Of a stretch of 32,000 bases of DNA, positions 871 through 21,854 are shown piece after piece; positions within the stretch are counted from its first letter, which is position 1, and each line of letters begins with the position of its first letter. Position numbers and translations under genes: made by a program. The notes under the pieces were generated by a model. It was given only the letters and a program-made list of their open reading frames with translations. It had not been told where the DNA came from and searched no databases. This DNA comes from Bellilinea caldifistulae. Its GTDB lineage: Bacteria; Chloroflexota; Anaerolineae; Anaerolineales; Anaerolineaceae. The stretch covers positions 1 to 32,000 of the forward strand of contig NZ_LGHJ01000029.1 in NCBI RefSeq assembly GCF_001306055.1. The letters are read 5' to 3'.

Positions 871-2148
871 TTAGCGTTCGTTTTCCAGAGCTTTTTGAAG
901 ATCATCTCCATTGCGGATGATGCGCAGCGGGATTCCATAGGCTTTCAACCTTTCGAAGACCCCGCATTCCTTAGGGTGTGCACCAAAACTTGCCGGGTCT
1001 AAACCGATGACCACTGGTCTCAGGTCCTTGCGCAAAAGGATCTCTATCGCCAGTTCAAGGACTTCGGAGCAAATGGCTGTGATTATCACCACAGTACTGC
1101 CTTTGGGAATCTGGCTTGTTTGGCCCTCAATCAAGCCGGTAATGGGTAAACTCCCCTCCGGCTGTAGAAAAGCCAGGGTTTCCAGCAACTTTCCCATTTG
1201 CCTCACGCCTTTCTCGGCGGGTAAGACACTCAACGTCTGGGCTGCACAGGCAAAGCCCACCGAGCGGCCGTGCTTTAAGTAATAATCCGCAACTGATGCG
1301 GCGCAGGAAACCCCATATTCAAATGAATTTGGTGGTAATGGAATGATCAGCTTTTGGGGAATGATCCAGTAATGATTGGCTCGATCAATTCGTTGAGTGT
1401 CGGCCATTGCCGAGTGAGTGCCAGCTTGTGCATCCAGCAAAATCCATACATCCGCCTGCGGGTCTTGTTCGAATTCTTTCACCATCAAGCGGTCTTTCCG
1501 TGCCGTCGTCTTCCAATGGATTCTATTCAAGGGATCGCCGGGAGCATATTCCCGGACTCCTGCCGCATAAGGGGTAACTTCAAGGCTTTTCCGCCTTAAT
1601 GCTCTCCCCCCCGGTAATTCGCCACCCGGTTCTGGAAATTTTTGCAAATTTACCATATAGGGGAAAACTAGCAAGGTTTTATCGGCAGGTATGATTTTAT
1701 TTACTGCGAAAAATCCAAACGGATCACCCGAAATCAAAACCGTGGGCCCAAGACGAAATGCTCCTCTCTGGATCAATAATGTCCTGGAAAAATAGGAGCG
1801 GCTCTGCCTGGGACCGATACCTGAAATGACTCGGGATCCCTGTTTCTCAGGCAATGGAGATAAATCTTTAACTTCAATCCACAACCTACCGTACCATGAT
1901 TCGTTGTGGACTTCAAATCTTTCTTCAAAAATCTGCCCTACTGGCAACCTGAGCACTCGCGCACTTCGTACAACACTTAATCCGCCCAATGCCAGTACCG
2001 CCCACAAAAACGCTATGGTTATCAATGCCAGTAAAAGGTATATTATCCGATAATATACAAACACAGTTGGTTGTTGGGTTAAATAAGCCCCAACAAAGGA
2101 GCCGGCGAGCAGAAGGACGAAGATAAAAAAAGGTGAACGGATTTTCAT
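871..2148 (-). CDS. DUF58 domain protein (MoxR-associated, VWA-like), membrane-anchored by N-terminal TM helices
   Basis: 425 aa. Two hydrophobic N-terminal helices, then the DUF58 core [29 protein letters not shown]. Its start ATG overlaps the moxR stop (ATGA at 2145-2148). Confidence 0.8.
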
Positions 2149-3122
2149 GCGGTTGAAGGCTGAAATGCAAGGTCCCCGCCCGGAACCGGCACCAGCGTAA
2201 CCAGCTCGTGAACAATCTGATCGGCGCTCAAGTTCCTCAACCTTGCTGACGGTTGAATAACCATTCGATGAGACAGGATATTTTCAGCCAATACCTTGAT
2301 ATCGTCCGGAAGCACATAATCCCTTCCATGAATAGCCGCCCTTGCCTGCCCCGCGCGGAATAAACCAAGGCTTCCTCTTGGACTTGACCCCAGGTAAACA
2401 TCTTGATTTTCACGGGTTGCCCGGGTCAATTCCACAATATATTGCCGTAAAGAACGGGATACATACACCGTTCGAATAATCTGTTGAACTTCCAGCAATT
2501 CGTCCACTTCAACAACAGGTTCCAATTCTTCGATCGGATGGCGCAATTGTTGAAGCTCCAAAATTTTCATTTCATCATAGAGAGAAGGATAACCTATTTT
2601 GATACGCATTAAGAAACGGTCTAATTGTGCTTCAGGCAGTGGAAATGTACCTTCATACTCAATCGGATTCTGTGTGGCTAAAACCAAGAATGGAACAGGC
2701 AACGGGTAGGTAACACCATCCACAGTAACCTGACGTTCCTCCATTGCCTCCAACAACGCTGACTGTGTTTTTGGAGTGGCGCGGTTAATTTCATCTGCCA
2801 GGACAATTTGCGCCATGATCGGTCCCGGTCGAAATTCAAACTCTCGGGTAACCTGATTGAAGATGGAAACTCCAGTGACATCACTCGGTAGCATATCCGG
2901 TGTAAATTGGATGCGGCTGAATTTTACCCCAAGGCTCTTTGCCAGGCTTCGGGCTAAAATTGTTTTACCAACTCCCGGCACATCATCAATCAAGAGATGC
3001 CCCTGACAAAGCAGGCTAATAATGACCATTTCAAGGGTATGTGTTTTACCCACAATGACTTTTTCCAGATTTTCCATAACCCGTTTTGAAAAGGATTGAA
3101 CTTTTTCAATGTTCTGATTCAT
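2145..3122 (-). CDS. moxR: MoxR-family AAA+ ATPase
   Basis: 325 aa. Walker [10 protein letters not shown], Walker B/sensor region [24 protein letters not shown]-terminal lid with SSPRGS. Classic MoxR-DUF58 gene order. Confidence 0.9.
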
Positions 3123-3132
3123 TCAGTGCTCC

Positions 3133-5460
3133 TCACCGAAATTTGATTGCCATTACAACCGTGATTAGACAAAATATCAAAGTGCCCAAACTGGCCCAAA
3201 GAACAAGAGGAAATGCAGTTGGAAGATACCGGAAGGTTATAATGTGATTTCCAGCAGGAACACATACACCTTTAAACAGATAATCAACTCGTTCAACCGA
3301 AGCGCTTTGTCCATCAATGGTTGCATCCCATCCCGGATACCAGCTGTCAGCAAAACGAAGCCAGCCGGTGGAATTGGTTCTTACAGCAACTTCAATCAAG
3401 TTGACCTCATCACGCAAAACCTCAATAGTGGTATTTGCACCAATCTGATCAGATGCAATTTTACATTGATCTTCCGCCTCAACAATTATACACTCCTCAC
3501 CATCAGAAAATTCCATTTGTTGTAGAACCATTGACTTAAGAACATTTTCATCCTTTCCGGCAACTCTTTGACATGCCCTCCACATTATTCTTGATTGGGG
3601 TTGCAGAGGTATTACATGCCAATCAAGATGATTCCCTAATTGGACAACACTTCCCACCCCGATTTTCTCAAGATAATTTTGACTTTCAACGGGGACAAGA
3701 TTATTGAGCCAATCCATCCACTGGTTATAACGGTTGGTCACCAACGGATCGAAATTATTGACCATTGGAACACCAAGTAATAAATTCATATTTGGAAGAG
3801 GGAGTAATTTAATTTCATCCCAGTTCGAATTTGCATTAAAGTCACTAAACAAAAGGTATTTTTCAAATTTCAACCGATTTTCTACCGTGGACGGGATATA
3901 AATCCTTGCATGATTCTCAAGAGGTTTGGAAACAGACGCAGAAGAATTGAAGAAACTTGCTTCCATAAACGGGTTCGAATAAGCCCCTGCTACCCATAAA
4001 TCCACTACCATAATCCCAACGGCAAAACCTTCCCACAATTTTCTTCTCTTGTGGTTGAATTCACCTTCCCCTGGCGTAAATAAAGCCAGTATAGAGATCA
4101 AGAATAACAAAACCCCAAAGGTCAGGAACGAACGTATAAAGGTCTGTTCGATTTGTGGCAATACAATGCCAGCCACCATCGCCCCAATCCCCACAGCCAC
4201 ACTCGCAGCTGCTAACAAACGAAGTCTCTTAATCCCTGCCGCCGTTGGATACCCCCAGGAATGAGCTCCAAGACCGGCGAGTAAAGCCAGAGAAAAAACC
4301 GCCAACAACATCCAGCGAGTGGGAGCTTGAAACATATCAAAACCGGGGACATGGCGATATAGCCATGGAAATACCGGCGTGTTTTTCCCCAAACTTAAAA
4401 CAATCGCAAAGATAATAATCATCCAGAGGAATTTGACCATTCGCCTTTTTTCATAATCAAAATCTGCGACCGGCTTTCGGCTGAAAATTAAATTAAGTGA
4501 ATGCAAGGATAAAAGAATGGGCAGTAAACCGATGTAGAGAGCGTCCTCCCAGTACGCCCCAAAACCCCAATAATTTCCCCTACCGGGATTACCAAACAAA
4601 TCCGGCAATAAGAAACCAAGCAAACGCCATGGCCAAAGAGAATAGTTCATGGCATATTCATAATCCACTGCATCGGATCGCTGCGATTGAAGTAAATATT
4701 CAAGAGTTGGTATCAGTTGCACACTCGCAATCAAAAAAGCCAACACCATTCCCAAGGCAAAAAGGGTCACAATTTTCAGTTTTGTTTTCCACAAGGATAT
4801 TTTGGCTACGCGAAATACAATCCACGATCCAGCAAAAACAAACGAGTAAAAGGTTAATTGAGCATGACCCGCCAGCAATTGGTTTGCAGCTATCAACGCC
4901 AGCCCAATCATCCACTGCCATTGTTGAGAAAACTTTTCGGATTTGATCAACCGCTCAATCGCCCATATCAACCATGGGAGCCAGACACCAGCCCAGATCA
5001 TGCTGAAAAAAGATGCACGTGCAACAAAATACCCGCAAAAGCTGAAAGCCAGTGCCGCAATTACCTGGCCACGAGTATTGACGCCCATCTCCCTCAGAAG
5101 CAAGGCCGTGCCAATTCCAGCAATCCCCAGATGAACCGCAACCAGCAAGGTATAAGCCCACGCTAAAGCTGGCGCTCCTCCTGCCAAATAAAAGGGGTAA
5201 AGGATCCATGATAAGGGGTATAGAAAAGCCGTTTGATAATTGGCAAAAAGCGGCGCCCCCATTCCATTTAAAGGATTCCAGAAGGGAAAGACACCCTCGC
5301 TCAATAATGCATAACCATAAGTCCGCCAAGGGATAAACTGAAGCCCGGCAGTCCCCCAAAAAATCACCTTCCCTTCAAGCAGCGGAATCAGGAAAAGTAT
5401 AAACGGAGCAAGAAAAACAAACCCATAAACCAGATTACCGCTTTTACAAAGAAGTTTCAT
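3133..5460 (-). CDS. YfhO-family polytopic membrane protein (GT-C-type glycosyltransferase candidate), copy B1
   Basis: 775 aa with many TM helices. N-terminal FPFWNPLNGMGAPLFANYQ..YP motif. C-terminal WYPGWDATIDGQSASVERVDYLFKGVCVPAGNHIITFRY followed by a terminal TM helix. I recognise this as the YfhO architecture. Confidence 0.75.
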   Translation of the reverse strand: MKLLCKSGNLVYGFVFLAPFILFLIPLLEGKVIFWGTAGLQFIPWRTYGYALLSEGVFPFWNPLNGMGAPLFANYQTAFLYPLSWILYPFYLAGGAPALAWAYTLLVAVHLGIAGIGTALLLREMGVNTRGQVIAALAFSFCGYFVARASFFSMIWAGVWLPWLIWAIERLIKSEKFSQQWQWMIGLALIAANQLLAGHAQLTFYSFVFAGSWIVFRVAKISLWKTKLKIVTLFALGMVLAFLIASVQLIPTLEYLLQSQRSDAVDYEYAMNYSLWPWRLLGFLLPDLFGNPGRGNYWGFGAYWEDALYIGLLPILLSLHSLNLIFSRKPVADFDYEKRRMVKFLWMIIIFAIVLSLGKNTPVFPWLYRHVPGFDMFQAPTRWMLLAVFSLALLAGLGAHSWGYPTAAGIKRLRLLAAASVAVGIGAMVAGIVLPQIEQTFIRSFLTFGVLLFLISILALFTPGEGEFNHKRRKLWEGFAVGIMVVDLWVAGAYSNPFMEASFFNSSASVSKPLENHARIYIPSTVENRLKFEKYLLFSDFNANSNWDEIKLLPLPNMNLLLGVPMVNNFDPLVTNRYNQWMDWLNNLVPVESQNYLEKIGVGSVVQLGNHLDWHVIPLQPQSRIMWRACQRVAGKDENVLKSMVLQQMEFSDGEECIIVEAEDQCKIASDQIGANTTIEVLRDEVNLIEVAVRTNSTGWLRFADSWYPGWDATIDGQSASVERVDYLFKGVCVPAGNHIITFRYLPTAFPLVLWASLGTLIFCLITVVMAIKFR

Positions 5461-5473
5461 TCGATAACTTTCC

Positions 5474-7063
5474 TTAATTTTTAATTATTGGACTAACCTT
5501 GTAGATGATATATTTGCTGTTTTCCGTAATTTTATTTAGAAATTCCATTTCTGAACCCGGTTTCATGAACCTCGGAGTTTTCGACTTACTTAAAATCCAG
5601 TAGTCCACCTGTTCCTCCTTCAAGAATTTAAAAAATTCAAGCGAATTACCTTTTAAAAATAAAAGATCCACTTGTTCTCTGATCAGTTTAGCTCGAATAC
5701 TTTCCGGGCCGTGGCCGATAATCACGCGAACTGGAGCATGCGCTGGAAGTAATGTGGATATTTCCCAATCTGCAAGAACCACAGACTGTTCTGGTATTAA
5801 TTTTCTTACACTTTCAAATAATTGGACTTCTTCCTTATGCAGGTAGAGGGGAAAAGCCTTTGCAGAAATAACGTCCAATGATCCAGCGAGAAGAGTAAAT
5901 GTGGTAACAAAATTTATCAAATACCAGGACACCCAAAGTTTTCCTAAACGATTTCTAATATGGATTAACCCGTTGATTGCCAGGATACTTAACACAACAA
6001 AACTGCCCTCCGCTAAACGTCTTTGGAGAAGATATGGAGCATATATAAGAAATGGAAGAAGGCAAGTCCATGTAATTAATAGACGGAATTTCGGCCGGGT
6101 GTTGTTATTGAGGATACCCACAATCGCAAAAGGGATGATTAAACCGTAAGCCAGGAAATACTCAATCACCGGTGGGGAAAGAATGACATTTTGAGACTGC
6201 CACGCTTTTAAAAACGGATCGAGACGAAAGGCAACGAAAGTATATATCACCAGAGGGGAAGAAACCAAAACGATCACGATCAACTTCAACATGTGATCAT
6301 GTAGATACTTCTTTAAATCATTAAAACCTCTCCTACTGGCCAGGACCAACTCAACCAAGTTGTAAGCAGAGAGAATCAACCAGCCAATAGGTACAGTAAG
6401 GGGTTGCATAAAAGCCAGCAGATTCCACAAAACCCCAATGATCACACTTTCCTTCAGGGAGTTGTTTGAATTACTTTCCAGGAATTTTGCTAAACCTATA
6501 AATAAAAAGCCTCTGGCCCAAACCAAATGAGGAATTGAAAGAAAAGATAAAAAACCAAAGGTTTCAGGCGAATAAAACTCTAATGGCAGGTATGACCATA
6601 TCTTATTCAATCCCAAAAAATACAAAAATCCAAGCCCTCCTCCAAATGTAGATAAAATCAACGCTAAAAATCGGCCTGGTGTTTCCCGAATAAAAATTGA
6701 GGCAAACCGATAAACTGCATAAAGACAAAAACCAATGCCCACGATACGAAACAAATGGAAAAGAAATATTCTTGTGTGATAGTCGCCATCAGAACCCACC
6801 AATTTTCCTAAAAGGAGATATGGGAAGAATGCCAAAAAACCTTTTTGCGGAAAGGCAGTATATGGGGTTTTGAAGAGCCAGGCCCCTTTTGCCCCCGCTA
6901 ACATTTTTGCCAGATAAGAATTTCCATCTTCTACCCCAATTAATAGACCTGTGTAAAAAAAATCATTGCTCGAATTAAGCCAGCCAACTAAATAAGGAAA
7001 AGACGTAATCACAGCTATTATTAGCCAAGATAAAGAAAGACCAATCTTTTCACTTTTCTTCAT
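5474..7063 (-). CDS. Unassigned ~530-aa polytopic membrane protein, copy A1 (paralog of 9149-10678; GT-C-like by inference)
   Basis: The ORF is open to 7108, but MKKSEKIG at 7063 aligns with the paralog's N-terminus and reduces the overlap with the upstream gene to 14 nt. About 12 hydrophobic segments plus a ~120-aa C-terminal soluble domain. Acidic first-loop motif GVEDGNSYLAKM. Confidence 0.6.
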   Translation of the reverse strand: MKKSEKIGLSLSWLIIAVITSFPYLVGWLNSSNDFFYTGLLIGVEDGNSYLAKMLAGAKGAWLFKTPYTAFPQKGFLAFFPYLLLGKLVGSDGDYHTRIFLFHLFRIVGIGFCLYAVYRFASIFIRETPGRFLALILSTFGGGLGFLYFLGLNKIWSYLPLEFYSPETFGFLSFLSIPHLVWARGFLFIGLAKFLESNSNNSLKESVIIGVLWNLLAFMQPLTVPIGWLILSAYNLVELVLASRRGFNDLKKYLHDHMLKLIVIVLVSSPLVIYTFVAFRLDPFLKAWQSQNVILSPPVIEYFLAYGLIIPFAIVGILNNNTRPKFRLLITWTCLLPFLIYAPYLLQRRLAEGSFVVLSILAINGLIHIRNRLGKLWVSWYLINFVTTFTLLAGSLDVISAKAFPLYLHKEEVQLFESVRKLIPEQSVVLADWEISTLLPAHAPVRVIIGHGPESIRAKLIREQVDLLFLKGNSLEFFKFLKEEQVDYWILSKSKTPRFMKPGSEMEFLNKITENSKYIIYKVSPIIKN

Positions 7064-9152
7064 GGGGCCATCGAAAAGAAAAATAAAGTACCAAACAAAG
7101 CCATGCAATAATACTTAATCCCAACCCAATAAAGACCAATCTCGGTCTAAACTCTAATTGTACGGTGTGTTCCCCGTTGGGTAAATTTATAACGGGGAAG
7201 AGATTTTCCTTCAAAGTGAAAGATACCGGTTGCCCATCCATACTAATCATCCAGCCCGGATAATAAACATGAGAAACGAATAACCGGCCCGGTCCACTGG
7301 CAGTTAGATCAAGTTTATTGGGTTGTACTTTAAGATTGTCAACAGGCAACCGTTCACCTTCATAGTCTATCCATGCTAATCCAATAAAATGGGGGTTCTC
7401 GTAAACTCGGCTTTCTGAAAACCGAGCAACCTCATTAGTCTTCAGCGCCGGAATGTCAAACTCCGACACGATAAATCGAACCCCAAGCAGGCTCATTAAT
7501 TCCAGATCCGGTGTGTAGTTTCGATTGTCTGTTTTTGGATCATCGTTCGGGAAAGGTGGGAGAGTCACGCTATAACGGTCAAGAGGTATGCCGCTTGCCC
7601 GGATAAAAAATTCCTGAAATGTGTTCAGGATCAAAGGATCCACGCCATTGACCATTTTGATATTTTGGAGCGCCGCAATATGTTGAGGAATGCTGTATGA
7701 GGGTGAATAAATTCGGAATTCACCGCTTTGTGATTTCAAGAATTCAACCACTGCCGGATTTTCGGAAAAAACCTCCGCCCGGGTTTTCCATTGAATGCTT
7801 TGCTGATTAACCAGCGATAAATCCACAATTAACAACAAGATCAATATTTTTACACCCTGAACGATCAAGTGCCTTTTACGCTCCACTAAAGCAATTAGAA
7901 AAATAACGCTCAACAGGTTGAAAAAACCCCAGATTAAGTTTGTCGATATTTTCTGCCCCAATAGAACGAAACCCAATCCAAAGAAACCCGTAAAAGCCGC
8001 AAAAGGCGTCATAAAAAAGACCGGATCTGGGCGAAACAGATTTTCTCTTTCGAGCAAGTCATGTAGACCCCACGCCGCAAGGATTGCAAATCCCATTCCC
8101 CCTAAAAAGTAAAAACGGGTGGGTACTCGCAATAAATCCATGCCGGGTAAAGTTGACAGGATTGAAAAGAATGGTAACGTATTCCCCAGGGAAAGCAGCA
8201 GGCTGAGAAGAACTACCAGCCACCAGAATGCGGTTTTCTTACGAAGGCCCGGGATGGATATTGAATAAATAGCAAGGCAAAAAACGAGAGCACCGGGGTA
8301 CAGAACCCATTCTGCAAAACCACCAAAATCCGGTATCCACAAACCTAAAATCTCTTCAAAGGGTAAAGAATTCACTGCGATGTCACTTTGATTCATTAGA
8401 GATCGCGTCGAAAGGTGGGTATATTCGAGTAATGGCAACAACAAAACCGATGCCAGCAGCAAGGCACCCGCGAAAACCAATGGAATTTCGGTAATTTGGT
8501 TGGTGATCTCGACAATGGTATTTGTTTTGCGCCTTCGAATCAGGTCATAAACCAACCATCCGGCCCACAATAAAACCGCATACGCCACCCAGCGCACATC
8601 CGCCAGAGCAATCAGCCCTAATATGCCGGCAGAGATCAGCCAGCGAGATTTATTTTGATTAGCCATTTGATTATATACAAGCCAGGGTGTCCAGCAAACG
8701 GCATAAATCAGGGTGATATGCCCGGCCGCGAAATGAGCAAACAACTTCGGCATCAATAAGAAAGCAAGCGCCCCTAAAATACTGGCTTCTCTGCGCAAAT
8801 TTTGATAAACCAGAAACCGTTTAATTCCAACGGCTCCCCAAAACAAATGGAGCATCACAAGAATGTTAAAACCAGTAGGGTATGGGAAAATGTAAGCCAG
8901 CCAACCCGGCGGATACCATAAACCTGCCAGCGGATTGGCCGCAAAGGGATAACCGCCCAAAATCAGTGTTGACCAAAAAGGAAATGTCCCATGATTTTTG
9001 ATACTATCCAGAAGATAAATAGCGTTTGGCAGATGAGTAATGGTTAAGTCTGAAAACCCCGAATATCTCGGATAAAAAAAATATTCCGCGCCGATTAGCC
9101 ATGGGATTAAGGGAATTACCAGGATTAACCACTCAAATTTTTTTCGGATCAT
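7050..9152 (-). CDS. YfhO-like polytopic membrane protein (GT-C candidate), copy B2
   Basis: 700 aa. TFPFWSTLILGGYPFAANPLAGLWYP N-terminal motif. C-terminal YYPGWMISMDGQPVSFTLKENLFPVINLPNGEHTVQLEFRP plus a terminal TM helix, parallel to B1. Its start overlaps the upstream gene's stop (ATGA at 9149-9152). Confidence 0.7.
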   Translation of the reverse strand: MIRKKFEWLILVIPLIPWLIGAEYFFYPRYSGFSDLTITHLPNAIYLLDSIKNHGTFPFWSTLILGGYPFAANPLAGLWYPPGWLAYIFPYPTGFNILVMLHLFWGAVGIKRFLVYQNLRREASILGALAFLLMPKLFAHFAAGHITLIYAVCWTPWLVYNQMANQNKSRWLISAGILGLIALADVRWVAYAVLLWAGWLVYDLIRRRKTNTIVEITNQITEIPLVFAGALLLASVLLLPLLEYTHLSTRSLMNQSDIAVNSLPFEEILGLWIPDFGGFAEWVLYPGALVFCLAIYSISIPGLRKKTAFWWLVVLLSLLLSLGNTLPFFSILSTLPGMDLLRVPTRFYFLGGMGFAILAAWGLHDLLERENLFRPDPVFFMTPFAAFTGFFGLGFVLLGQKISTNLIWGFFNLLSVIFLIALVERKRHLIVQGVKILILLLIVDLSLVNQQSIQWKTRAEVFSENPAVVEFLKSQSGEFRIYSPSYSIPQHIAALQNIKMVNGVDPLILNTFQEFFIRASGIPLDRYSVTLPPFPNDDPKTDNRNYTPDLELMSLLGVRFIVSEFDIPALKTNEVARFSESRVYENPHFIGLAWIDYEGERLPVDNLKVQPNKLDLTASGPGRLFVSHVYYPGWMISMDGQPVSFTLKENLFPVINLPNGEHTVQLEFRPRLVFIGLGLSIIAWLCLVLYFSFRWPHEEK

Positions 9153-10678
9153 GATCCCTGCCGTGTTTCAAGAATAATGAAACGATCATTTTGATACACA
9201 ACTGGCAATTTCTCCATCCATTTTGAAAATTTAGAAAGATTACCACGGGGCCAAACGAGGTATTCAATCTGATATGATTCGACAAAGTGGCTAAATTCAC
9301 CTTGACTGATTTCCCCGTCATAAAATTGCTCAAGCCAATCTTGAGTCATATTGGCATAAACCGTCTCAAAAGGATGACCATAGACCACTCGACAATTTGT
9401 ATAAGCCGGTACGAGTAAGCCCAAATCAGCCGGTGTAAGTATCACCGCTTTACGAGGGCAGACCTCCCGGTTCATCCATTCTAAAACGGCAAACTCATCC
9501 CGGCTGAGATAAAGAGGCGACCGATGTTGTGTATAAGCCTGTAACGCGCCAAACAGCAAAAACAGATTTGTAAGCAAAGAAAGCGGTAAAATCAACCAGA
9601 ACCATTTTCGGAATCGGGAGATCCGGTTTTTTGTAATCCTGCCCAACCCAATCAAGGCAAAAATCCCCACAGGAATAAACCAACCCAATAAAAACCGCCT
9701 TTGAAGCGCAAAGGGAAAGTAAGCCAGACCAACCCCGCTGATCAACCACGCTGCGACAAGATTGAGATTCTTGTCACGATCCTGAACAACCCATAATCCA
9801 ATACCAATCAAAGCCAACAAAAGTAGCGGTGCAAACGAGAGCAGAAGTACCCAAAGCGAGGGGGTCGGTGTTTGATTTTGAGCATTCCAATCCCTCAAAA
9901 GAGGATCGGAAAGGATCGCAAAATATTGATAAACCAGCACAATACCGGCCGGTAACAAATAAAACAAAGGTAATTTCCATTGAATCTTTTCGCTCTGAAA
10001 CCACCTGAAAAAATTATAGACCACAATTACCGCAGACCCGACCACAACACCAAAAGGTAAAACGATCGCGAGGATTACCCCCAAAAATGGATCAAACCAT
10101 TTTACCGAACGGTTTTCTTGAATTCCCGAAAAGAACATCAACAATAATCCAACCCCAAAGGGAAAGTGCGGATTGGCTATCATGCTTAAAAAGGGATAGG
10201 CCTCAGCCACCCAAAAATCCATTGTAAAAACACCCAGCGGACCGGCTAACCATCCGAATCCGGAACCAAACAAAATCACAAACAAGAGATAGGAAAACAC
10301 ACTTTGAAGCCACCTGACCTGAATCGTCCGAAGAAACATCTCAATACCGAAACATAAAAAAAACCCTGCTGCAATTCGGGCCAGATGAAAAACGAGTGTG
10401 GGTTGCAACGAGAAAATTCTGGCAATATGTCCAAGAAAGATATAAAACAAGAAAAGAAACGCACCTGCCCCTTCTTGAGAAGTATACGGCAAATGAAATA
10501 ACCATTCTCCACGTAAGCCAATTTGCATCTTCGCCAGATAGCTGAATCCATCAATCGGATTCAACAAAAATCCACTGTAAATATAATGTGCATCCTGGAG
10601 GAGTAAACCTACCAGGAATGGCAACCCACTAAAAATCACAGTAAGGAGGATAATAAATCGAGATATTTTTTGAGGCAT
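9149..10678 (-). CDS. Unassigned ~510-aa polytopic membrane protein, copy A2 (paralog of 5474-7063)
   Basis: The ORF is open to 10738. The start at 10678 (MPQKISRF) was chosen by alignment with A1. Motifs shared with A1: PFLVGLL, IDGFSYLAKMQIGLRGEWLFHLPYT, DPLLRDWNAQN, YFPFALQRRF, PLYLSRDEF, LLVPAYTNCRVVYGHPFE. Confidence 0.6.
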   Translation of the reverse strand: MPQKISRFIILLTVIFSGLPFLVGLLLQDAHYIYSGFLLNPIDGFSYLAKMQIGLRGEWLFHLPYTSQEGAGAFLFLFYIFLGHIARIFSLQPTLVFHLARIAAGFFLCFGIEMFLRTIQVRWLQSVFSYLLFVILFGSGFGWLAGPLGVFTMDFWVAEAYPFLSMIANPHFPFGVGLLLMFFSGIQENRSVKWFDPFLGVILAIVLPFGVVVGSAVIVVYNFFRWFQSEKIQWKLPLFYLLPAGIVLVYQYFAILSDPLLRDWNAQNQTPTPSLWVLLLSFAPLLLLALIGIGLWVVQDRDKNLNLVAAWLISGVGLAYFPFALQRRFLLGWFIPVGIFALIGLGRITKNRISRFRKWFWLILPLSLLTNLFLLFGALQAYTQHRSPLYLSRDEFAVLEWMNREVCPRKAVILTPADLGLLVPAYTNCRVVYGHPFETVYANMTQDWLEQFYDGEISQGEFSHFVESYQIEYLVWPRGNLSKFSKWMEKLPVVYQNDRFIILETRQGS

Positions 10679-10770
10679 AAGGGAATTCGATTTGAAGTAT
10701 ACTTGAGAAGAAATGTACCTGCAATTGAAAATGGACATCCTAATCCGAAACCAGCATCACGCATAAACTT

Positions 10771-11472
10771 ATGAGTCAATCCTTTCACTTGTTTCAATTA
10801 CAAAAAGTGGATACACGGCTGGATCAAATTCAGCAGCGTATCAACTCAATCCTGCAGGAAATTGAGAATGACGCCCGCTTAAAAACGGCTCAAGAACAAC
10901 ATCGTCGGGCTTTGGAAAAATTCAACCAAATTCAACGGGAATTAAAAAAAATTGAACACGAAGTTGAAATCCGTCGGTTGAAACTAGAACAAAGCGAAGC
11001 CAATCTATATTCCGGGAGGATAAAAGTCCCAAAGGAATTACAAGATTTACAAAACGAAGTCGCGTCCTTAAAACGCAGTATTACCACTCTGGAAGATCAG
11101 CAGATTGAGATCATGATTCAGCTGGAAGAGGCAAAAAACGAATTTGACCAACTTCAACAGGCACTCTTGCAGGTTGAAGCTGAAGTCGCTCAAAGCCACG
11201 CCGGCTTAATTGGCGAAAAAACCCGACTCGAAAACGACCAGCAAAGGTTATTAACCGAAAAACAGGTAATCCTTTCCCAAATCTCCCCCGCCACACTTGC
11301 CGAATACGAAAAACTCCGCGAAAAAAAACAAGGTATTGCTGTAGCATCTGTGGAAGACTCTTCCTGCAGCGCTTGTGGGGCAGGCCTTACCCCTGCGCAA
11401 TGTCAGGCCGCTCGATCCCCCTCCACCATATTTTACTGCCCTTCTTGCGGCAGAATCATCTACGCAGGATAA
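10771..11472 (+). CDS. COG1579/DUF164-type coiled-coil protein with C-terminal C4 zinc ribbon (HP0958-like)
   Basis: 233 aa. About 190 aa of heptad-rich Q/E/L/K sequence, then CSAC...x20...CPSC (nt about 11365-11448). Confidence 0.8.
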   Translation: MSQSFHLFQLQKVDTRLDQIQQRINSILQEIENDARLKTAQEQHRRALEKFNQIQRELKKIEHEVEIRRLKLEQSEANLYSGRIKVPKELQDLQNEVASLKRSITTLEDQQIEIMIQLEEAKNEFDQLQQALLQVEAEVAQSHAGLIGEKTRLENDQQRLLTEKQVILSQISPATLAEYEKLREKKQGIAVASVEDSSCSACGAGLTPAQCQAARSPSTIFYCPSCGRIIYAG

Positions 11473-11478
11473 ACCATT

Positions 11479-13965
11479 ATGTTTGGTTTAGATAACTTCG
11501 CACTGGATCGGCTTTCCTTCTGGTTGGGTTTCATTGGCGGTACGCTTTTCTGGTTGTTACTCAACCGGCTGTGGAAAGGATTACCGTTTATTCGCCAGAC
11601 CGTTCAGCAGATCATCGAAGCCAATCGAAGAAAAACCATGTCTGGCGTAGAAAGTGCACTCAGGCAGGATGCCCTCCGCAGAGCTCAACGAAATCATCTG
11701 AGCGCTTCTTTGTTTTCGCTGGACGAGATTGTTGTTGAACCCCACCTACTGGCACCACCTCCTCAAGCCGACCCACAAACTACCCTGTCGGTCGAACGGT
11801 ATGCCTTTCATGTGATGCCATATTTGCCTGAATTTCCAGAATTTGCCACCCGACTCGGCTGGCCACGTTTGACCATTTTCGAAGCTCTGCAGGGAGGCAC
11901 TCATCTAGCTCTGCTTGGCGAAGCCGGCTCTGGTAAATCAACCGCGCTGGCATTTATCACCTCCTTGATTGCTCGCCAAGACCAGAAAGCGGCTCATTGG
12001 GGAGAGTATTTTCCAGTTTATCTTCACATTCTTGACCTTGAGTTCCAAACTTCAAACCAGAAAGACTTACTTGATCCTATCATCAAATCTCTTTCCGCGT
12101 CCGCACCAGTAACTTCTCTACCTCAAATTCCAGGGTTTATTCGCAGCGTGTTCAAGAATGGAAAAGTGATTTGTGTGTTCGATGGTCTTGATGAATTAAA
12201 CAAAGAGCAATTTCTCAACGTTCAATCTTACCTGAGCGAACTGATCTCTCAGTATCCATCCATCCGCATTATTACAGCAGTAAACCATCAATACCTCGAT
12301 GGCTTGGGTCGGCTTTCCTTTGAACCTTTTGTTTTAGCCGGGTGGACCAAGGACGAGTTGACCAATTTTATCAATCGCTGGGGGGTATTGTGGAACAATC
12401 TAATTGGGATTGCCGCCTCTCAACAACAAAAACTGGAAATTTTAGATAACCTTCTGGTCACCAACTGGCTCGGTTATGATCCGCTTTACTGTACACCTTT
12501 GGAATGGACGCTTAAGGTTTGGGGAGCATTCGCCGGTGATTTGCAAGGGGCTGAAGAATTTACCACCCTATCAGCGCATCTCAGCCGGGTGACTCACTAT
12601 CGAGTTCCCCTCGCAGCGATGAGTGTTCTCGCAAATGCAATGATCCGAGACCAATCTCCCACTATTGAATATTCGGATGCAGAAAAAGCCCTTTCTGAAT
12701 TCCGTTTGGATAAAGACGAAGAGGCCAGACTGATTGAAGAGGAAAAAACAACCAATCCATCCTCTTTACAGAAAGAAATGGGAGCAAAGTCTGTGACCTC
12801 CGGCAACCGAATATTATCGATTCTGCTCGAAGCAGGAATCCTTGCAGAACATCAAGGAGACCGTTTAAGATTTTTCTCACCGGTTTGGACGGGTTACCTT
12901 GCAGCTACTCAACCTCCATCCCATCCAATCGTTCCACCCATGCGGCTGTACTCGTCATTGGATGATGCGTACTACCATTACTTGACGATCTTACAACCGG
13001 ACAACTGGCTGGATGCTTACCTGCAAAGAGATGAATCCCCCTTCTATACCAATCTGATCAACGGTCTGCGTTGGATTAAAGACACGCCATCCAACCATCC
13101 CGCTCGATCGCTGGTATTGAGAAAATGTATATCCTTCCTCCAGAATGAGATGATGCCGTACTCCTTGCGAGCCCGTGTTTTAGCCGGTTGTGTTTCCTCA
13201 AACGATACGGCTCTAACCCTGCTTTTCAAACAATTTCTCGCCAGTGCTTCCTCGACAATGCGAACCCTGGCTGCCTTAGGATGCGGCGCTCTGCAGGACA
13301 CCAAAACCATTCCTAATCTAATTTCACTGCTCAATGATGAACATCCTGAAACCCGAATGGCCGCCTGTTTTGCACTGGCGTGTTTTGATAACCCAGATGC
13401 AGAGAAAGCAATTCTCAACTGTATTCATTTTGCGGAAGAATCCTTGCGTCTGGCAGCAGCGGAAACATTGACTATGAATGTTCGTAAGGGGCACGCCCGC
13501 CTCAAAGAATTAACTGAATCAGAAGATTTGCTGGTAAGAAGATCTGCTGTGTTTGGTTTTTCTCTAATTCAGGAGGAATGGGTAGTGGATTTATTGGAAA
13601 AGATGGCCGTGGAAGACAGCCAATGGGTTGTTCGTAACGCCGCTGGTCAGGCTTTGGAAAACCGCCAAAAAGCCAATCCCTTCATTCCGCCGCGTCAAAA
13701 AGAACCCGCTGATACTGCCTGGTTGATTGCGTTTGCCGCCAAAAGAGGGGTAGGCATTTCCAAAGGGGATACAGCCATTCCCTTACTTCTGGATGTTTTA
13801 GCAAGTGGTACGGATGAAGAAAAAATTGCTGCCTTGTGGTTTTTACGGCATCACCGCCAGAATTCGGTGATTTCTCAACTTTATCCGTTATTATATTCTC
13901 CACAAATTGAGTTGAGAGACACCGCCAATTATGCCCTCTGGTTTATGTCCATATGTGATAACTGA
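11479..13965 (+). CDS. STAND NTPase: N-terminal TM helix + NACHT domain + C-terminal HEAT repeats
   Basis: 828 aa. Hydrophobic helix LSFWLGFIGGTLFWLLL (nt about 11512-11568). Walker A GEAGSGKST (11917-11943). NACHT-type Walker B VFDGLDEL (about 12175-12198), followed by IRIITAVN. The C-terminal ~230 aa has repeated HEAT/PBS-lyase-like units (ETRMAACFALACF, LRLAAAETL, LLVRRSAVFGFS, WVVRNAAGQAL). Starts 6 nt after the upstream stop. Confidence 0.75.
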   Translation: MFGLDNFALDRLSFWLGFIGGTLFWLLLNRLWKGLPFIRQTVQQIIEANRRKTMSGVESALRQDALRRAQRNHLSASLFSLDEIVVEPHLLAPPPQADPQTTLSVERYAFHVMPYLPEFPEFATRLGWPRLTIFEALQGGTHLALLGEAGSGKSTALAFITSLIARQDQKAAHWGEYFPVYLHILDLEFQTSNQKDLLDPIIKSLSASAPVTSLPQIPGFIRSVFKNGKVICVFDGLDELNKEQFLNVQSYLSELISQYPSIRIITAVNHQYLDGLGRLSFEPFVLAGWTKDELTNFINRWGVLWNNLIGIAASQQQKLEILDNLLVTNWLGYDPLYCTPLEWTLKVWGAFAGDLQGAEEFTTLSAHLSRVTHYRVPLAAMSVLANAMIRDQSPTIEYSDAEKALSEFRLDKDEEARLIEEEKTTNPSSLQKEMGAKSVTSGNRILSILLEAGILAEHQGDRLRFFSPVWTGYLAATQPPSHPIVPPMRLYSSLDDAYYHYLTILQPDNWLDAYLQRDESPFYTNLINGLRWIKDTPSNHPARSLVLRKCISFLQNEMMPYSLRARVLAGCVSSNDTALTLLFKQFLASASSTMRTLAALGCGALQDTKTIPNLISLLNDEHPETRMAACFALACFDNPDAEKAILNCIHFAEESLRLAAAETLTMNVRKGHARLKELTESEDLLVRRSAVFGFSLIQEEWVVDLLEKMAVEDSQWVVRNAAGQALENRQKANPFIPPRQKEPADTAWLIAFAAKRGVGISKGDTAIPLLLDVLASGTDEEKIAALWFLRHHRQNSVISQLYPLLYSPQIELRDTANYALWFMSICDN

Positions 13966-13971
13966 GCCGTT

Positions 13972-14295
13972 TTAAGAAGGAATTTTTACCAATCTCCCAA
14001 TAATTTGCTGAACCTGATCCACGCTCACACCGATGATGCTGATTAATTTATGGGAGGTATTTTTTCCGCTAATGATTTCAAAACGATTCGAGGGTACGTC
14101 GAAAAGATTGGACAAAAACTTTATCAGATCTGCATCAACGGCCGGATCCTCTTTGGGATTTACCAATCCAATTTGCAAAGTTCCATCCGGCAGCACTTTT
14201 TCAACCTTATTGACCTTTGCATTTAGATGCAAACTCACCGTGATAGCCGAACCGGATTTTGCATCATGAAAGCGGTTGTTTTTTGAATTCGTCAT
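13972..14295 (-). CDS. DUF167 (YggU-like) family protein
   Basis: 107 aa. Pattern LHLNAKV..LQIGLVNPKED..ADLIKFLSNLFDVPSNRFEIISGKNTSHKLISIIG matches the YggU/DUF167 layout. Sits directly downstream of yggT. Confidence 0.7.
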   Translation of the reverse strand: MTNSKNNRFHDAKSGSAITVSLHLNAKVNKVEKVLPDGTLQIGLVNPKEDPAVDADLIKFLSNLFDVPSNRFEIISGKNTSHKLISIIGVSVDQVQQIIGRLVKIPS

Positions 14296-14299
14296 TGCT

Positions 14300-14563
14300 C
14301 TACCTGAGTGAAGCCAATAGAGAGATTAACAAGGTCTGAACGACTTGAATTAAAATAATCAGAATTAAAGGACTGAAATCAATCATCCCCACTGGAGGCA
14401 CTACCCTGCGAATCGGGCTGAGGAGTGGTTCGACAATACGATCCAGATTGGCACGAATGGGATGGTAAGGCGACATAAAGTAGGACAGCACCACGCTGAC
14501 AATCACCACGATAAATAACACACTTCCGATTGCTTGAATTAATGTGATTAATAGATCAATCAT
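14300..14563 (-). CDS. yggT: YggT-family small integral membrane protein
   Basis: 87 aa with two TM helices and a central RIVEPLLSPIRRVVPPVGMIDFSPL motif typical of YggT/YlmG. Sits between yggS and DUF167. Confidence 0.8.
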   Translation of the reverse strand: MIDLLITLIQAIGSVLFIVVIVSVVLSYFMSPYHPIRANLDRIVEPLLSPIRRVVPPVGMIDFSPLILIILIQVVQTLLISLLASLR

Positions 14564-14566
14564 CGT

Positions 14567-15313
14567 TCAATCCTTTGAATAATCTCTTGGCCCCAAAATT
14601 GCCTGACCTATTCTTACGATGGTAGCCCCTTCCATGATTGCAGCCGGAAAATCGGCACTGGTTCCCATTGATAATTCAGTCAGTTTTAATTTTGGCAATC
14701 TTTCCTGTAAAAAATCACGCATTTGACGCAGTTTACGGAAATAACCCTGCGCCTCTTGTAAGGTAGCAGTTAGGGGGGGCATTGTCATTAAACCGCAAAT
14801 CTGAAGATGCGGAAATTGCTGAATTTGGTCAATTTCGGGAATCAATTCAGACCAGTAGTCGGGGTCACTGGCCAACCAGCCATATTTGGAAACTTCACCC
14901 CCAACATTAAACTCCAATAACACCTTCAGGAATCTGTTTTGTTCTGCAAGAAGTCGTTCCAGTTTTTCCGCAATCCGCAGACTGTCTAAAGAATGCATCC
15001 AATCAAAATAAGCCGAAACCAGTTTCGCTTTTCGGCTTTGCAGGTGACCAATCATGTGCCATTCGATCCCCTCCACATCTCGAAAAGCGTGGATCTTCTC
15101 CATTGCTTCTTCTGGATAATTTTCACCAAAACTACGGATGCCGGCATTGATGGCAGATTCTACTACTTTCAATGGCTGGCTCTTGGAAACAACCACAATC
15201 CGAATTTCTTCCGGTTTTCGGCCGCATTTCAAAGCCGTGTGTTGGATTTCTTCCTGCACACGCAGATAATTACTTCGAATTTCCTCAACACTCAATGGCA
15301 TCTTGCCAGACAA
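14567..15313 (-). CDS. yggS: YggS/YlmE-family pyridoxal-phosphate homeostasis protein
   Basis: 248 aa. VVSKSQP (PLP lysine context), FGENYPEE, HMIGHLQSRK, SMGTSADF motifs. Confidence 0.9.
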   Translation of the reverse strand: MSGKMPLSVEEIRSNYLRVQEEIQHTALKCGRKPEEIRIVVVSKSQPLKVVESAINAGIRSFGENYPEEAMEKIHAFRDVEGIEWHMIGHLQSRKAKLVSAYFDWMHSLDSLRIAEKLERLLAEQNRFLKVLLEFNVGGEVSKYGWLASDPDYWSELIPEIDQIQQFPHLQICGLMTMPPLTATLQEAQGYFRKLRQMRDFLQERLPKLKLTELSMGTSADFPAAIMEGATIVRIGQAILGPRDYSKD

Positions 15314-15317
15314 TCCT

Positions 15318-16103
15318 TCATGATGGTCGTAATTTGATTAATGCAGCAAACCGGCCGGTTTTTCCCTGTTCGGCACGATGAGAAAACCATCGTTTCAAAT
15401 CACAGGCGGTGCATTGCTGCGCAATTTGAATGGATTTTACCCCAACTTCCCTCAAAAGAATTTCATTTGCTCTCCACAAATCAAAATGAATATCTCCATT
15501 GGCAGCCTGAAGAACTTCACCCACTTTATTGCCAAAAGTTTCTGCAACCTCTCTGGCAACATCCTCCTTGATGATGTAATGGTCAACGCCGATGGAAGGC
15601 CCGATCCCCGCCAGAATATCGGCCGGTTTGGATTGAAAACTTTCCTGCATAAACTGCACAGTCTTGGATGTGATTTTCTGAACCGTACCCTTCCATCCGG
15701 CATGGATCAAACCGATTGCCCGATGAACGGGATCAAACAATAAAATCGGGACACAATCCGCGAACCGCATCAACAAAGTAACGGAAGGATTATTGGTCAC
15801 GATCGCATCTGCCTTTTCATGAGGGTGATCCAGGGGGCGAGGCTTATCCGAATACAATACCATGTCAGAGTGAATCTGCCATACATCAAAAATTGAAGTA
15901 ACTTCTATCCCCAATGCTTCAAAGATGCGTCGGCGGTTTTCAATCACATTCTCACGGCTATCACCCACCGTCCCCCCCAAATTGAGAGAATCCCAGGGCA
16001 TTGGGCTTACCCCTCCCTTTCGGGTAAATACAGCCTGAACAACCTCATCCCCCAGCAAATCAAATTTGAAAAACTCTAAGCCGTTGATCTCAACAAATGG
16101 CAT
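15318..16103 (-). CDS. pgeF: Peptidoglycan editing factor PgeF (YfiH/YlmD, DUF152 laccase-domain protein)
   Basis: 261 aa. QIHSDMV, ADCVPILL, HAGWKGT and C-terminal CTACDLKRWFSHRAE motifs. Confidence 0.9.
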   Translation of the reverse strand: MPFVEINGLEFFKFDLLGDEVVQAVFTRKGGVSPMPWDSLNLGGTVGDSRENVIENRRRIFEALGIEVTSIFDVWQIHSDMVLYSDKPRPLDHPHEKADAIVTNNPSVTLLMRFADCVPILLFDPVHRAIGLIHAGWKGTVQKITSKTVQFMQESFQSKPADILAGIGPSIGVDHYIIKEDVAREVAETFGNKVGEVLQAANGDIHFDLWRANEILLREVGVKSIQIAQQCTACDLKRWFSHRAEQGKTGRFAALIKLRPS

Positions 16104-21140: not shown

Positions 21141-21854
21141 TCAGAAAAGAAAATGTCCTAAGACCACACACCCCAATGGGACGGTGAGGTTGTCAATATC
21201 CTTCATCGGCAAGGACTCAATGGCTGTGGCGATAAGAGCCAATCCGGTTACCGGCAACAACAAAGAAGATAAAGAATGAGAAAGTTTACCAGAAATCACA
21301 AACACAGACAGAATCACAATTGAAAATAACCAACCGGCAAAAAACATGGCGGCGGTTCCAAACCATGTCTTTCTGGGTGACCAGGGAAGTGGTTTTCCCG
21401 GTATTCTTTTACCAATTACATCCGCCAGGCCATCACCACCACACATCATCATCAAAGCCGTAATGCCAATCGGAGAATCATACCAGTAGACTATCGTTAA
21501 AATCACAAAGACTATTCCGTAAAGAAGTGGTCCTCTCAAAATTTCACGCGGATCCCCGCTGCGTGACATTCCATCCACGGCTGCCTGATCGCGTATAACC
21601 CCAATTCCAATCAAAAAAAATTGAATGGTAATCGCAAAAGGCACCAGCGCAGCCAGCCAGCGAGAGGATGACTGATCGGTAAACAACAACCAGCATAAAA
21701 CAAATATCGGGCCTGTACCGGCATGGATGATTTTTCTGCTCAGTTGAGAACTGATCCAACCACGGTGCGCAAGAAAATCGTTAAAGCGCAGCCATAGCAA
21801 GGCCAAAGCAAAGGTAACTACCAGTGCCAGCAAATTATTTCCAAGCATCCTCAC
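21141..21854 (-). CDS. CTP-dependent polyprenol/phytol/dolichol kinase-family membrane protein (COG0170-like)
   Basis: 237 aa with about 6-7 TM helices. LSRKIIHAGTGP and CGGDGLADVIGKR motifs resemble the VTE5/Sec59 kinase family. Confidence 0.6.
   Translation of the reverse strand: MRMLGNNLLALVVTFALALLWLRFNDFLAHRGWISSQLSRKIIHAGTGPIFVLCWLLFTDQSSSRWLAALVPFAITIQFFLIGIGVIRDQAAVDGMSRSGDPREILRGPLLYGIVFVILTIVYWYDSPIGITALMMMCGGDGLADVIGKRIPGKPLPWSPRKTWFGTAAMFFAGWLFSIVILSVFVISGKLSHSLSSLLLPVTGLALIATAIESLPMKDIDNLTVPLGCVVLGHFLF

Follow-up and report, generated by a model that had tools for sequence, protein, structure and literature searches.

Whether a NACHT-type NTPase in a bacterial genome should be taken for an immune receptor is the question raised by a gene pair of Bellilinea caldifistulae (Chloroflexota, Anaerolineales). 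An anti-phage receptor has become nearly the default interpretation of bacterial NACHT and NLR-like proteins, and an original prediction, made from the DNA alone, had cast this pair as an anti-phage sensor/effector system, with a structural or regulatory role as its fallback. The pair lies in a 32,000-nucleotide (nt) stretch (contig NZ_LGHJ01000029.1, positions 1 to 32,000, forward strand), hereafter called the window. Gene A (10771..11472, + strand) encodes a 233-amino-acid (aa) protein of the CT398/HP0958/MSMEG_4306 family (COG1579/DUF164), and gene B (11479..13965, + strand) encodes an 828-aa STAND NTPase with transmembrane (TM), NACHT and HEAT regions. A and B form a true, functionally coupled two-gene operon, and their family is a clear counter-example to the default assignment. 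With moderate confidence, the pair can be read as a vertically inherited operon specific to the Anaerolineales, in which a membrane-tethered NACHT STAND switch and a dedicated cytoplasmic CT398-family partner serve signalling or regulation other than defence.

In every examined locus where their order can be read, the two genes stay together. A scan with one genome per GTDB species recovered 322 stretches encoding a relative of B, and the best 80 were taken with 10-kb flanks for comparison. The named genera among these 80 loci all belong to the Anaerolineales (Bellilinea, Thermanaerothrix daxensis, Anaerolinea thermolimosa, Ornatilinea, Brevefilum and Ca. Villigracilis). Each of the 77 loci that keep upstream DNA has A just ahead of B in the same orientation (75 full-length copies of A and two partial ones at contig ends, with alignment-guided start codons); in the other three, B begins within 95 nt of a contig end. 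The gap between the genes has a median of 7 nt, falls within -4 to +15 nt in 65 of the 77 loci and is at most 51 nt in all of them. The pairing holds down to approximately 33% identity for B and 33–37% for A, and no other gene of the window is conserved beside B in more than 28 loci. The coupled cassette of the original prediction, for which co-occurrence in other genomes was the proposed check, is thus upheld by synteny in every informative locus. Three irregularities were set aside. Negative overlaps between A and B proved to be an artefact of longest-open-reading-frame calls and were gone with the alignment-guided starts. An apparent A-B fusion (P0364, 1078 aa) has lost the second CxxC knuckle of A and reads as a frameshift, and a 1300-aa version of B running into the downstream amidohydrolase (L047:9983-13885) may be an error; neither was counted.

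Clustering of neighbouring genes resolves the 80 loci into two chromosomal contexts only, both of them housekeeping. In type 1 (28 loci, the window among them), genes for YfhO-like membrane proteins diverge from the pair on its upstream side, and a convergent YggU-YggT-YggS-PgeF cluster lies downstream. In type 2 (49–51 loci), the pair is preceded on the same strand by a gene for a TM protein with PG_binding_4 and beta-lactamase-like (Beta-lactamase2) domains and is followed, again on the same strand (+1 to +9), by an amidohydrolase gene and then by F420 biosynthesis genes. The F420 cluster is near-complete, with Npd, CofE, PNPOx/nitroreductase, CofD, CofC and LLM oxidoreductase genes (e.g. 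in L044 and L076). Most of the more distant Anaerolineales carry the type-2 context.

Both gene trees recover type 2 as a single clean clade, as expected of one ancient rearrangement followed by vertical descent. The distance matrices of A and B correlate at r = 0.86 overall, and a Mantel comparison within type 2 gives r = 0.87, a value reached by 0 of 2000 permutations. Over 23 type-1 loci, the identity of B additionally tracks that of SmpB, PgeF, YkuD and DsbD (Spearman 0.7–0.9). The family of B comprises at least 349 clusters at 50% identity (E ≤ 1e-30), all encoding proteins of approximately 830–870 aa, and a search of a representative library with B residues 1–560 returned family members for all of the top 150 matches, with no outside relatives among these. 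B belongs to a large, uniform, vertically inherited clade that forms part of the core genome throughout an order of filamentous Chloroflexota and is tied to a single partner gene.

The layout in the window fits this picture. The 233-aa gene ends 6 nt before the ATG of the 828-aa gene, exactly as had been called, and the junction reads GCAGGAtaaACCATTATG. A Shine-Dalgarno-like AGGA (11466..11469, + strand) is read within the last codons of A, 9 nt upstream of the B ATG. A and B lie in the same frame, 708 nt apart, with a stop codon between them. An exact-sequence look-up of the window B protein gave no record, and its 99%-identical relative P0001 was taken in its place; the same A and B gene calls had been made independently on the public contig of that relative. 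GC content across the pair (0.45–0.49) falls inside the window range and the flanking genes are housekeeping, in agreement with the native-looking composition and the lack of defence or mobile genes reported earlier. A candidate sigma-70-like promoter (10703..10732, + strand; TTGAGA-18-GAAAAT) lies approximately 39 nt upstream of the A ATG, within the annotated 5' end of the divergent membrane-protein open reading frame (ORF). It is a weak candidate only, because the promoter and terminator scan gave nothing above shuffled expectation (5 such promoter sites found in the region vs 5.8 expected). Downstream, 6 nt separate the stop codon of B from that of the convergent YggU gene, too little for a terminator between the two genes. 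Neither Rfam families nor tRNAs were detected in scans of the window.

B is a NACHT-clade STAND NTPase with an NLR-like fold. Residues 143–301 match the Pfam NACHT profile PF05729 at 31.9 bits, above the gathering score of 26.7, and the same profile is precomputed for most B homologues; the HEAT_2 profile scores 72.7 bits. An AlphaFold2 model built on a 99-sequence alignment is confident throughout most of its length (mean predicted local distance difference test, pLDDT, 90.6; predicted template-modelling score, pTM, 0.89). It places, in order, a long helix (residues 11–71), a P-loop alpha/beta domain, a helical domain, a linker, a winged-helix domain, further helices and a HEAT solenoid that runs to the C-terminus. 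In Foldseek comparisons, the top eight Protein Data Bank (PDB) matches are all NACHT modules of animal NLRs (NOD2 at 5.9e-8, NLRC4, NLRP9, NAIP/NLRC4 and NLRP3), followed by HEAT, ARM and alphaRep proteins; ADP-bound NOD2 and NLRC4 best match the overall layout. A sequence-profile search of the PDB returned HEAT/alphaRep proteins and a weak midasin P-loop match only, with no NLR, such that the NACHT fold is seen via structure. The original assignment of a NACHT module (with GEAGSGKST and VFDGLDEL) and of C-terminal HEAT-like repeats is accordingly borne out. The four NLRs NOD2, NLRC4, NLRP3 and NLRP9 are the closest fold matches to B (E 6e-8 to 5e-6) and share its domain order up to the repeat sensor, but they carry leucine-rich repeats and CARD or PYD domains where B has HEAT repeats and a TM anchor. 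Identity is 11–14%, a likeness at the level of the fold only.

The domains of B, all on the + strand, can be placed on the window as follows. A predicted signal-anchor or TM helix with N-out/C-in topology occupies residues 12–32 (11512..11574). The segment is moderately hydrophobic (best 19-residue Kyte-Doolittle window 1.22; family median 1.66), and the positive-inside rule is obeyed, with a median of 1 Lys + Arg before it and 6 after. AlphaFold models residues 11–71 as one long protruding helix. The single N-terminal TM helix called earlier is therefore only partly secured: charge distribution and the modelled helix agree with it and hydrophobicity is no more than moderate, making a signal anchor plausible as judged from hydrophobicity and charge. 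The juxtamembrane helix and the region preceding the nucleotide-binding domain (NBD) follow at residues 33–135 (11575..11883), delimited by alignments and entropy. Of all 30-residue segments of B, the best conserved (residues 61–90; sliding entropy minimum 1.21 bits) lies here, within the sequence LRRAQRxHL..LFSLDEIL..P.LLAPPP (61–94). The pre-NBD motif LFSLDEILxxP.LLAPPP is strongly conserved in the alignments and includes a short strand in the model.

The NACHT NBD itself (residues 136–300; 11884..12378), defined by the Pfam match, motif counts and Foldseek, has an intact nucleotide-binding site. The Walker A motif GEAGSGKS (G147–S154, including K153) is near-invariant among the 99 sequences (G147 in 97, G150 and G152 in 99, K153 in 96 with Arg in the other 3, and Thr or Ser at 154 in 99). 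The Walker B motif VFDGLDEL (D235-G-L-D-E239) is equally constant (D235 in 99, G236 in 98, D238 in 98 and E239 in 99). It conforms to the D[GAS]hDE signature, which, according to Kibby et al. (bioRxiv 10.1101/2022.07.19.500537), sets NACHT proteins apart from other STANDs. Helical domain 1 (HD1; residues 301–410; 12379..12708) carries a conserved TLKVWGAYAGD motif and is supported by alignment and model. It leads into a variable, charged and partly disordered linker (residues 411–440; 12709..12798), in which pLDDT falls below 50 at residues 424–437 and entropy reaches the protein maximum of 3.01 bits. The winged-helix domain (WHD; residues 441–480; 12799..12918) has the motif RFxHPVxxGYLA, assigned from residue counts and from DSSP elements of the model (helix 441–451, strands 455–458 and 462–465, helix 468–477). 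Helical domain 2 (HD2) or linker helices, seen in the model, span residues 481–560 (12919..13158).

The remainder of B, residues 561–828 (13159..13962), is a HEAT-repeat solenoid of the PBS-lyase/alphaRep type, assigned from HEAT_2 and from alphaRep matches to PDB profiles. It holds the near-invariant sequence ED(S/D/G)QWVVRN (712–720) and the motif WLIxFAxKxGxG (748–759), and its entropy, at 1.77 bits, is the lowest of any region of the protein (NBD 2.01, linker 3.01). Neither Pfam and NCBIfam nor the model showed a helix-turn-helix (HTH) or other DNA-binding domain in B, and profile scans including Pfam, NCBIfam and PADLOC revealed no nuclease, TIR, SIR2 or protease domain.

Gene A encodes a true member of the CT398/HP0958 (COG1579/DUF164) family that is not an orthologue of CdsZ, as profile, sequence, fold and cysteine evidence together establish. 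The protein matches the Pfam profile CT398_CC (PF24481) at E = 4e-23 over profile positions 1–179 of 180. It scores 26.7 bits against Zn_ribbon_9 (PF02591), slightly below the gathering score of 29.1, and PF02591 is precomputed for most A homologues; the NCBIfam CdsZ equivalog NF047363 is matched at 45.3 bits, far from its cut-off of 275. In a phmmer search of PDB sequences, the only significant matches (E ≤ 0.01), each over the full length, were CT398 (4ilo, 5.3e-9), MSMEG_4306 (5y05, 1e-8) and HP0958 (3na7, 3.6e-6), and the same three structures are the only Foldseek matches of the A model below 1e-3 (6.5e-9 to 2e-7). That model (pLDDT 94.1; 37 homologues) is a long helical hairpin (helices 3–79 and 87–168) followed by a small beta-ribbon. 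The antiparallel coiled-coil hairpin (residues 3–168; 10777..11274, + strand), delimited by DSSP, CT398_CC and conservation, turns near residues 80–86, beside a highly conserved LYSGxxKxPKELQDLQNE motif. The C4 zinc ribbon (residues 196–231; 11356..11463, + strand) has as ligands C199, C202, C223 and C226, which are invariant in the 37 homologues; the LYSGxxKxPKELQDLQNE motif is invariant or nearly so. A homologues are nearly always exactly 233 aa long. The coiled-coil/zinc-ribbon, COG1579/HP0958-like protein initially recognized is thus correctly named.

A shares its full-length architecture, coiled-coil hairpin plus C4 zinc ribbon, with CT398 (CdsZ), HP0958 (FlgZ), MSMEG_4306 and ML1638, although identity is approximately 17–19%. 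It departs from them in its surroundings. CT398-family genes in other phyla are reported beside NIF3-like genes or in an rpoD-dnaG context, and a NACHT partner is not among these settings (PMC3372290); here, the partner is the NACHT-HEAT gene, and neither the window nor the set of genes conserved beside the pair showed any flagellar or type III secretion genes. Members of the family are reported to stabilise or bind sigma-54/RpoN (PMC3372290), and ML1638 and CT398 are predicted to dock on the beta' subunit of RNA polymerase (RNAP), placing the tip of their hairpin at the sigma site (preprint 10.64898/2026.07.15.738315). COG1579 (CT398/HP0958) is widespread but enigmatic, and a conserved NTPase partner provides a testable handle on its role and control.

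The hallmarks of anti-phage defence are absent from the pair. B matches no model for bacterial NACHT (bNACHT) or Avs proteins in PADLOC, which returned a HEAT-ARM_XIII repeat match (7.9e-6) and weak P-loop matches only; the sole match of A to an Avs model, Avs2, is non-significant (E = 0.6). No relatives of B were found on IMG/VR viral contigs. For the neighbourhood, a published criterion was applied that considers defence genes within 5 kb at a null rate of 0.0153 and P ≤ 1e-4 (PMC13581612), such that at least 8 of the 80 loci would need to carry one. Of the 766 flanking genes in the 80 loci, 719 were covered by representatives in the scan, which used PADLOC rather than DefenseFinder, and no defence-gene enrichment was found within 5 kb of the pair: the matches were isolated and single-member, mostly to generic families. 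The homologues occupy two stable housekeeping contexts and not the defence islands in which the original prediction had proposed to look for them. LmuA and desaturase matches in one recurrent neighbour are false positives that fall on the Rossmann motif (residues 124–164) of a Fer4_20/Pyr_redox_2 oxidoreductase, and a mad2 match in a recurrent neighbour cluster is marginal. One singleton flanking gene among loci L001-L080 strongly matches the PADLOC candidate system PDC-S70 (E = 6.7e-49), and singleton neighbours show isolated weak matches to SduA (9.5e-7) and ThsC2/HIT (5.8e-12). These three matches are non-recurrent and therefore leave the verdict on defence unchanged.

Across the loci compared, the distribution of the pair shows no sign of being patchy or mobile: its contexts are fixed, its divergence tracks that of core neighbours and viral-contig relatives are lacking. 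The region that would serve as sensor also behaves differently. The C-terminal sensor of defence bNACHTs diversifies rapidly, according to Kibby et al., whereas B is conserved most strongly in its HEAT "sensor". Taken together with the core-gene descent of the pair, these results speak against the anti-phage assignment, and a refuting condition named in the original prediction applies: both genes act like members of a conserved core whose neighbours are unrelated to them. The structural or regulatory role first offered as a fallback is the better-supported branch.

The absence from B of any enzymatic or DNA-binding effector and the presence of A as its sole constant companion lead to a model in which B is a switch that controls A and A is the output. 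B would be anchored by its one N-terminal helix, with the NACHT and HEAT domains in the cytoplasm. Given its low entropy, the HEAT region is read as recognizing something conserved, and the solenoid would bind an endogenous ligand or protein. Competence for switching is suggested by the near-invariant Walker A and B motifs and by the confidently modelled NBD-HD1-WHD-HD2-repeat layout; nucleotide binding or exchange at the intact site may change the conformation or oligomeric state of B and thereby alter how it holds or presents A. By analogy with CT398, HP0958 and ML1638, A could then act on RNAP, a sigma factor or mRNA.

Such a system would resemble a split MalT- or AfsR-like STAND regulator whose nucleic-acid- or RNAP-binding part resides on a separate polypeptide. 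That some STAND clades act outside immunity is accepted (PMC13581612; AfsR preprint). MalT, AfsR and GutR are STAND NTPase switches with repeat sensors that act in housekeeping regulation, and they furnish a precedent for ligand-sensing control of transcription. They differ from B in being soluble and in having their own DNA-binding domain; B lacks an HTH and is predicted to be membrane-anchored, and any transcriptional output must therefore pass through the separate protein A. In its most specific form, which we consider unlikely, the model becomes a split NLR-type transcriptional switch, in which the membrane-tethered NACHT-HEAT sensor would capture or release the CT398-family factor in a nucleotide-dependent manner and the factor would dock on RNAP or sigma. 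If true, bacteria would have in this switch their first NACHT system with a housekeeping role and a place in the core genome of an order, and the COG1579 family its first dedicated upstream regulator.

Several points weigh against the model of a cellular STAND switch. It presumes physical contact between A and B, a ligand for the HEAT solenoid and an RNAP or sigma output, the last of which is borrowed from distant homologues (approximately 17–19% identity) and partly from predictions. The nucleotide cycle of B may be atypical, because the Arg expected as sensor 1 after beta4 is not apparent and the WHD His position varies (His in 59 of the 99 homologues; Ser467 in the window protein). B also evolves faster than typical housekeeping genes, with a median identity of 38% vs 54–82% for its neighbours. 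Finally, TM segments are a feature of some defence bNACHTs, listed among the categories of C-terminal regions in Kibby et al., such that the lack of an enzymatic effector is compatible with membrane-disrupting abortive infection.

The alternatives, in the order of weight that we assign to them, are an envelope scaffold, a core-fixed abortive-infection NLR and a meaningless adjacency. HEAT solenoids are classic scaffolds, and B might be a membrane-anchored HEAT platform whose NTPase cycle organises enzymes of the envelope, peptidoglycan or septum in these filamentous cells, with A as a coiled-coil structural adaptor and not a factor tied to transcription. This role in cell architecture, which we consider unlikely, draws on the gene directly upstream of the pair, which encodes an envelope-type membrane protein in both contexts (the divergent YfhO-like GT-C gene in type 1, the same-strand gene with PG_binding_4 and Beta-lactamase2 domains in type 2), and on type-1 downstream genes that include YggT, YggS, PgeF and a YkuD L,D-transpeptidase. 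These envelope neighbours differ by context, however, and are not invariably linked to the pair; A-B alone is invariant. The type-1 downstream genes are convergent to B and therefore not co-transcribed with it, and the type-2 same-strand run goes on into unrelated genes of F420 metabolism, such that co-orientation is little informative. Weaker fold matches of A to the coiled-coil domains of the peptidoglycan-hydrolase regulators PcsB and RipA (E 5e-3 to 1e-2) point the same way as the upstream genes but reflect generic coiled-coil similarity, several orders of magnitude below the CT398-family matches. The F420 run also bears on the proposal that A and B are two unrelated conserved genes that merely share an operon, since co-orientation alone is weak evidence where the pair sits in a long same-strand run of functionally unrelated genes. 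That proposal is very improbable: the A-B junction outlives the one rearrangement that changed both flanks, spacing stays at 1–15 nt in most of the 77 genomes down to approximately 33–37% identity, and the contexts of A in other phyla (NIF3, rpoD-dnaG; PMC3372290) are here replaced by B.

An anti-phage function, the reading preferred in the original prediction, could survive as a chromosomally fixed, abortive-infection NLR-like system, in which the HEAT repeats would recognise a conserved phage protein, A would be a co-sensor or regulator, and NACHT oligomerisation would cluster the N-terminal TM helices to permeabilise the membrane. B is indeed a true NACHT with intact Walker A and B motifs and a repeat-type C-terminal domain, and in the absence of another effector its N-terminal TM helix could in principle take that part. 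It shares with bNACHT and Avs proteins the NACHT module, the GxxGxGK[ST] and D[GAS]hDE motifs and the NBD-HD1-WHD-HD2-repeat layout, and NACHT proteins with HEAT-type repeats and TM segments exist among bacterial anti-phage clades (Kibby et al.). Because the phage proteins sensed by some Avs systems are themselves conserved core proteins (PMC13581612), a conserved sensor is by itself compatible with defence. STAND conflict systems are also enriched in multicellular bacteria, of which the filamentous Anaerolineae are an example (PMC7159879). B nevertheless differs from the bNACHT and Avs systems in lacking a PADLOC model match, viral-contig relatives, a defence island and an enzymatic effector. 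It is a stable core gene, present in one copy per inspected locus across the order, descending vertically alongside its flanking core genes in two fixed housekeeping contexts without a recurrent defence gene and bound to an obligate CT398-family partner; far from diversifying, its repeat domain is conserved more strongly than any other region. Abortive infection is therefore improbable here, and the family of A, to our knowledge, has no role in defence. The A-B family instead lends support to the idea of STAND clades changing between immune and non-immune functions, and it is a caution against annotation from domains only.

The genes around the pair in the window are those of the type-1 context. 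On the - strand at 3133-10738, a tandem array of four large membrane-protein genes consists of two paralogous pairs, in which YfhO-like GT-C proteins (3133-5460 and 7050-9152) alternate with membrane proteins of approximately 530–545 aa without a Pfam match (5474-7108 and 9149-10738). The alternating order suggests a duplicated two-gene module, and it is conserved in approximately 25 type-1 loci. One start may be mis-set, because the ORFs at 5474-7108 and 7050-9152 overlap by 59 nt. Beyond these genes, also on the - strand, lie a MoxR-type AAA_3 ATPase (2145-3122; 72–96% identity across type-1 loci) and, after it, a DUF58 protein (871-2148); MoxR and DUF58 are a classic gene pair. On the other side, the YggU(DUF167)-YggT-YggS-PgeF genes (13972-16103, - strand) converge on B. 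Such genes usually stand at the end of a division and cell-wall cluster; no ftsZ or sepF lies near them in the window. Farther downstream, between HAL and SmpB, a 237-aa protein without a Pfam match (21141-21854, - strand) is conserved in 20 loci.

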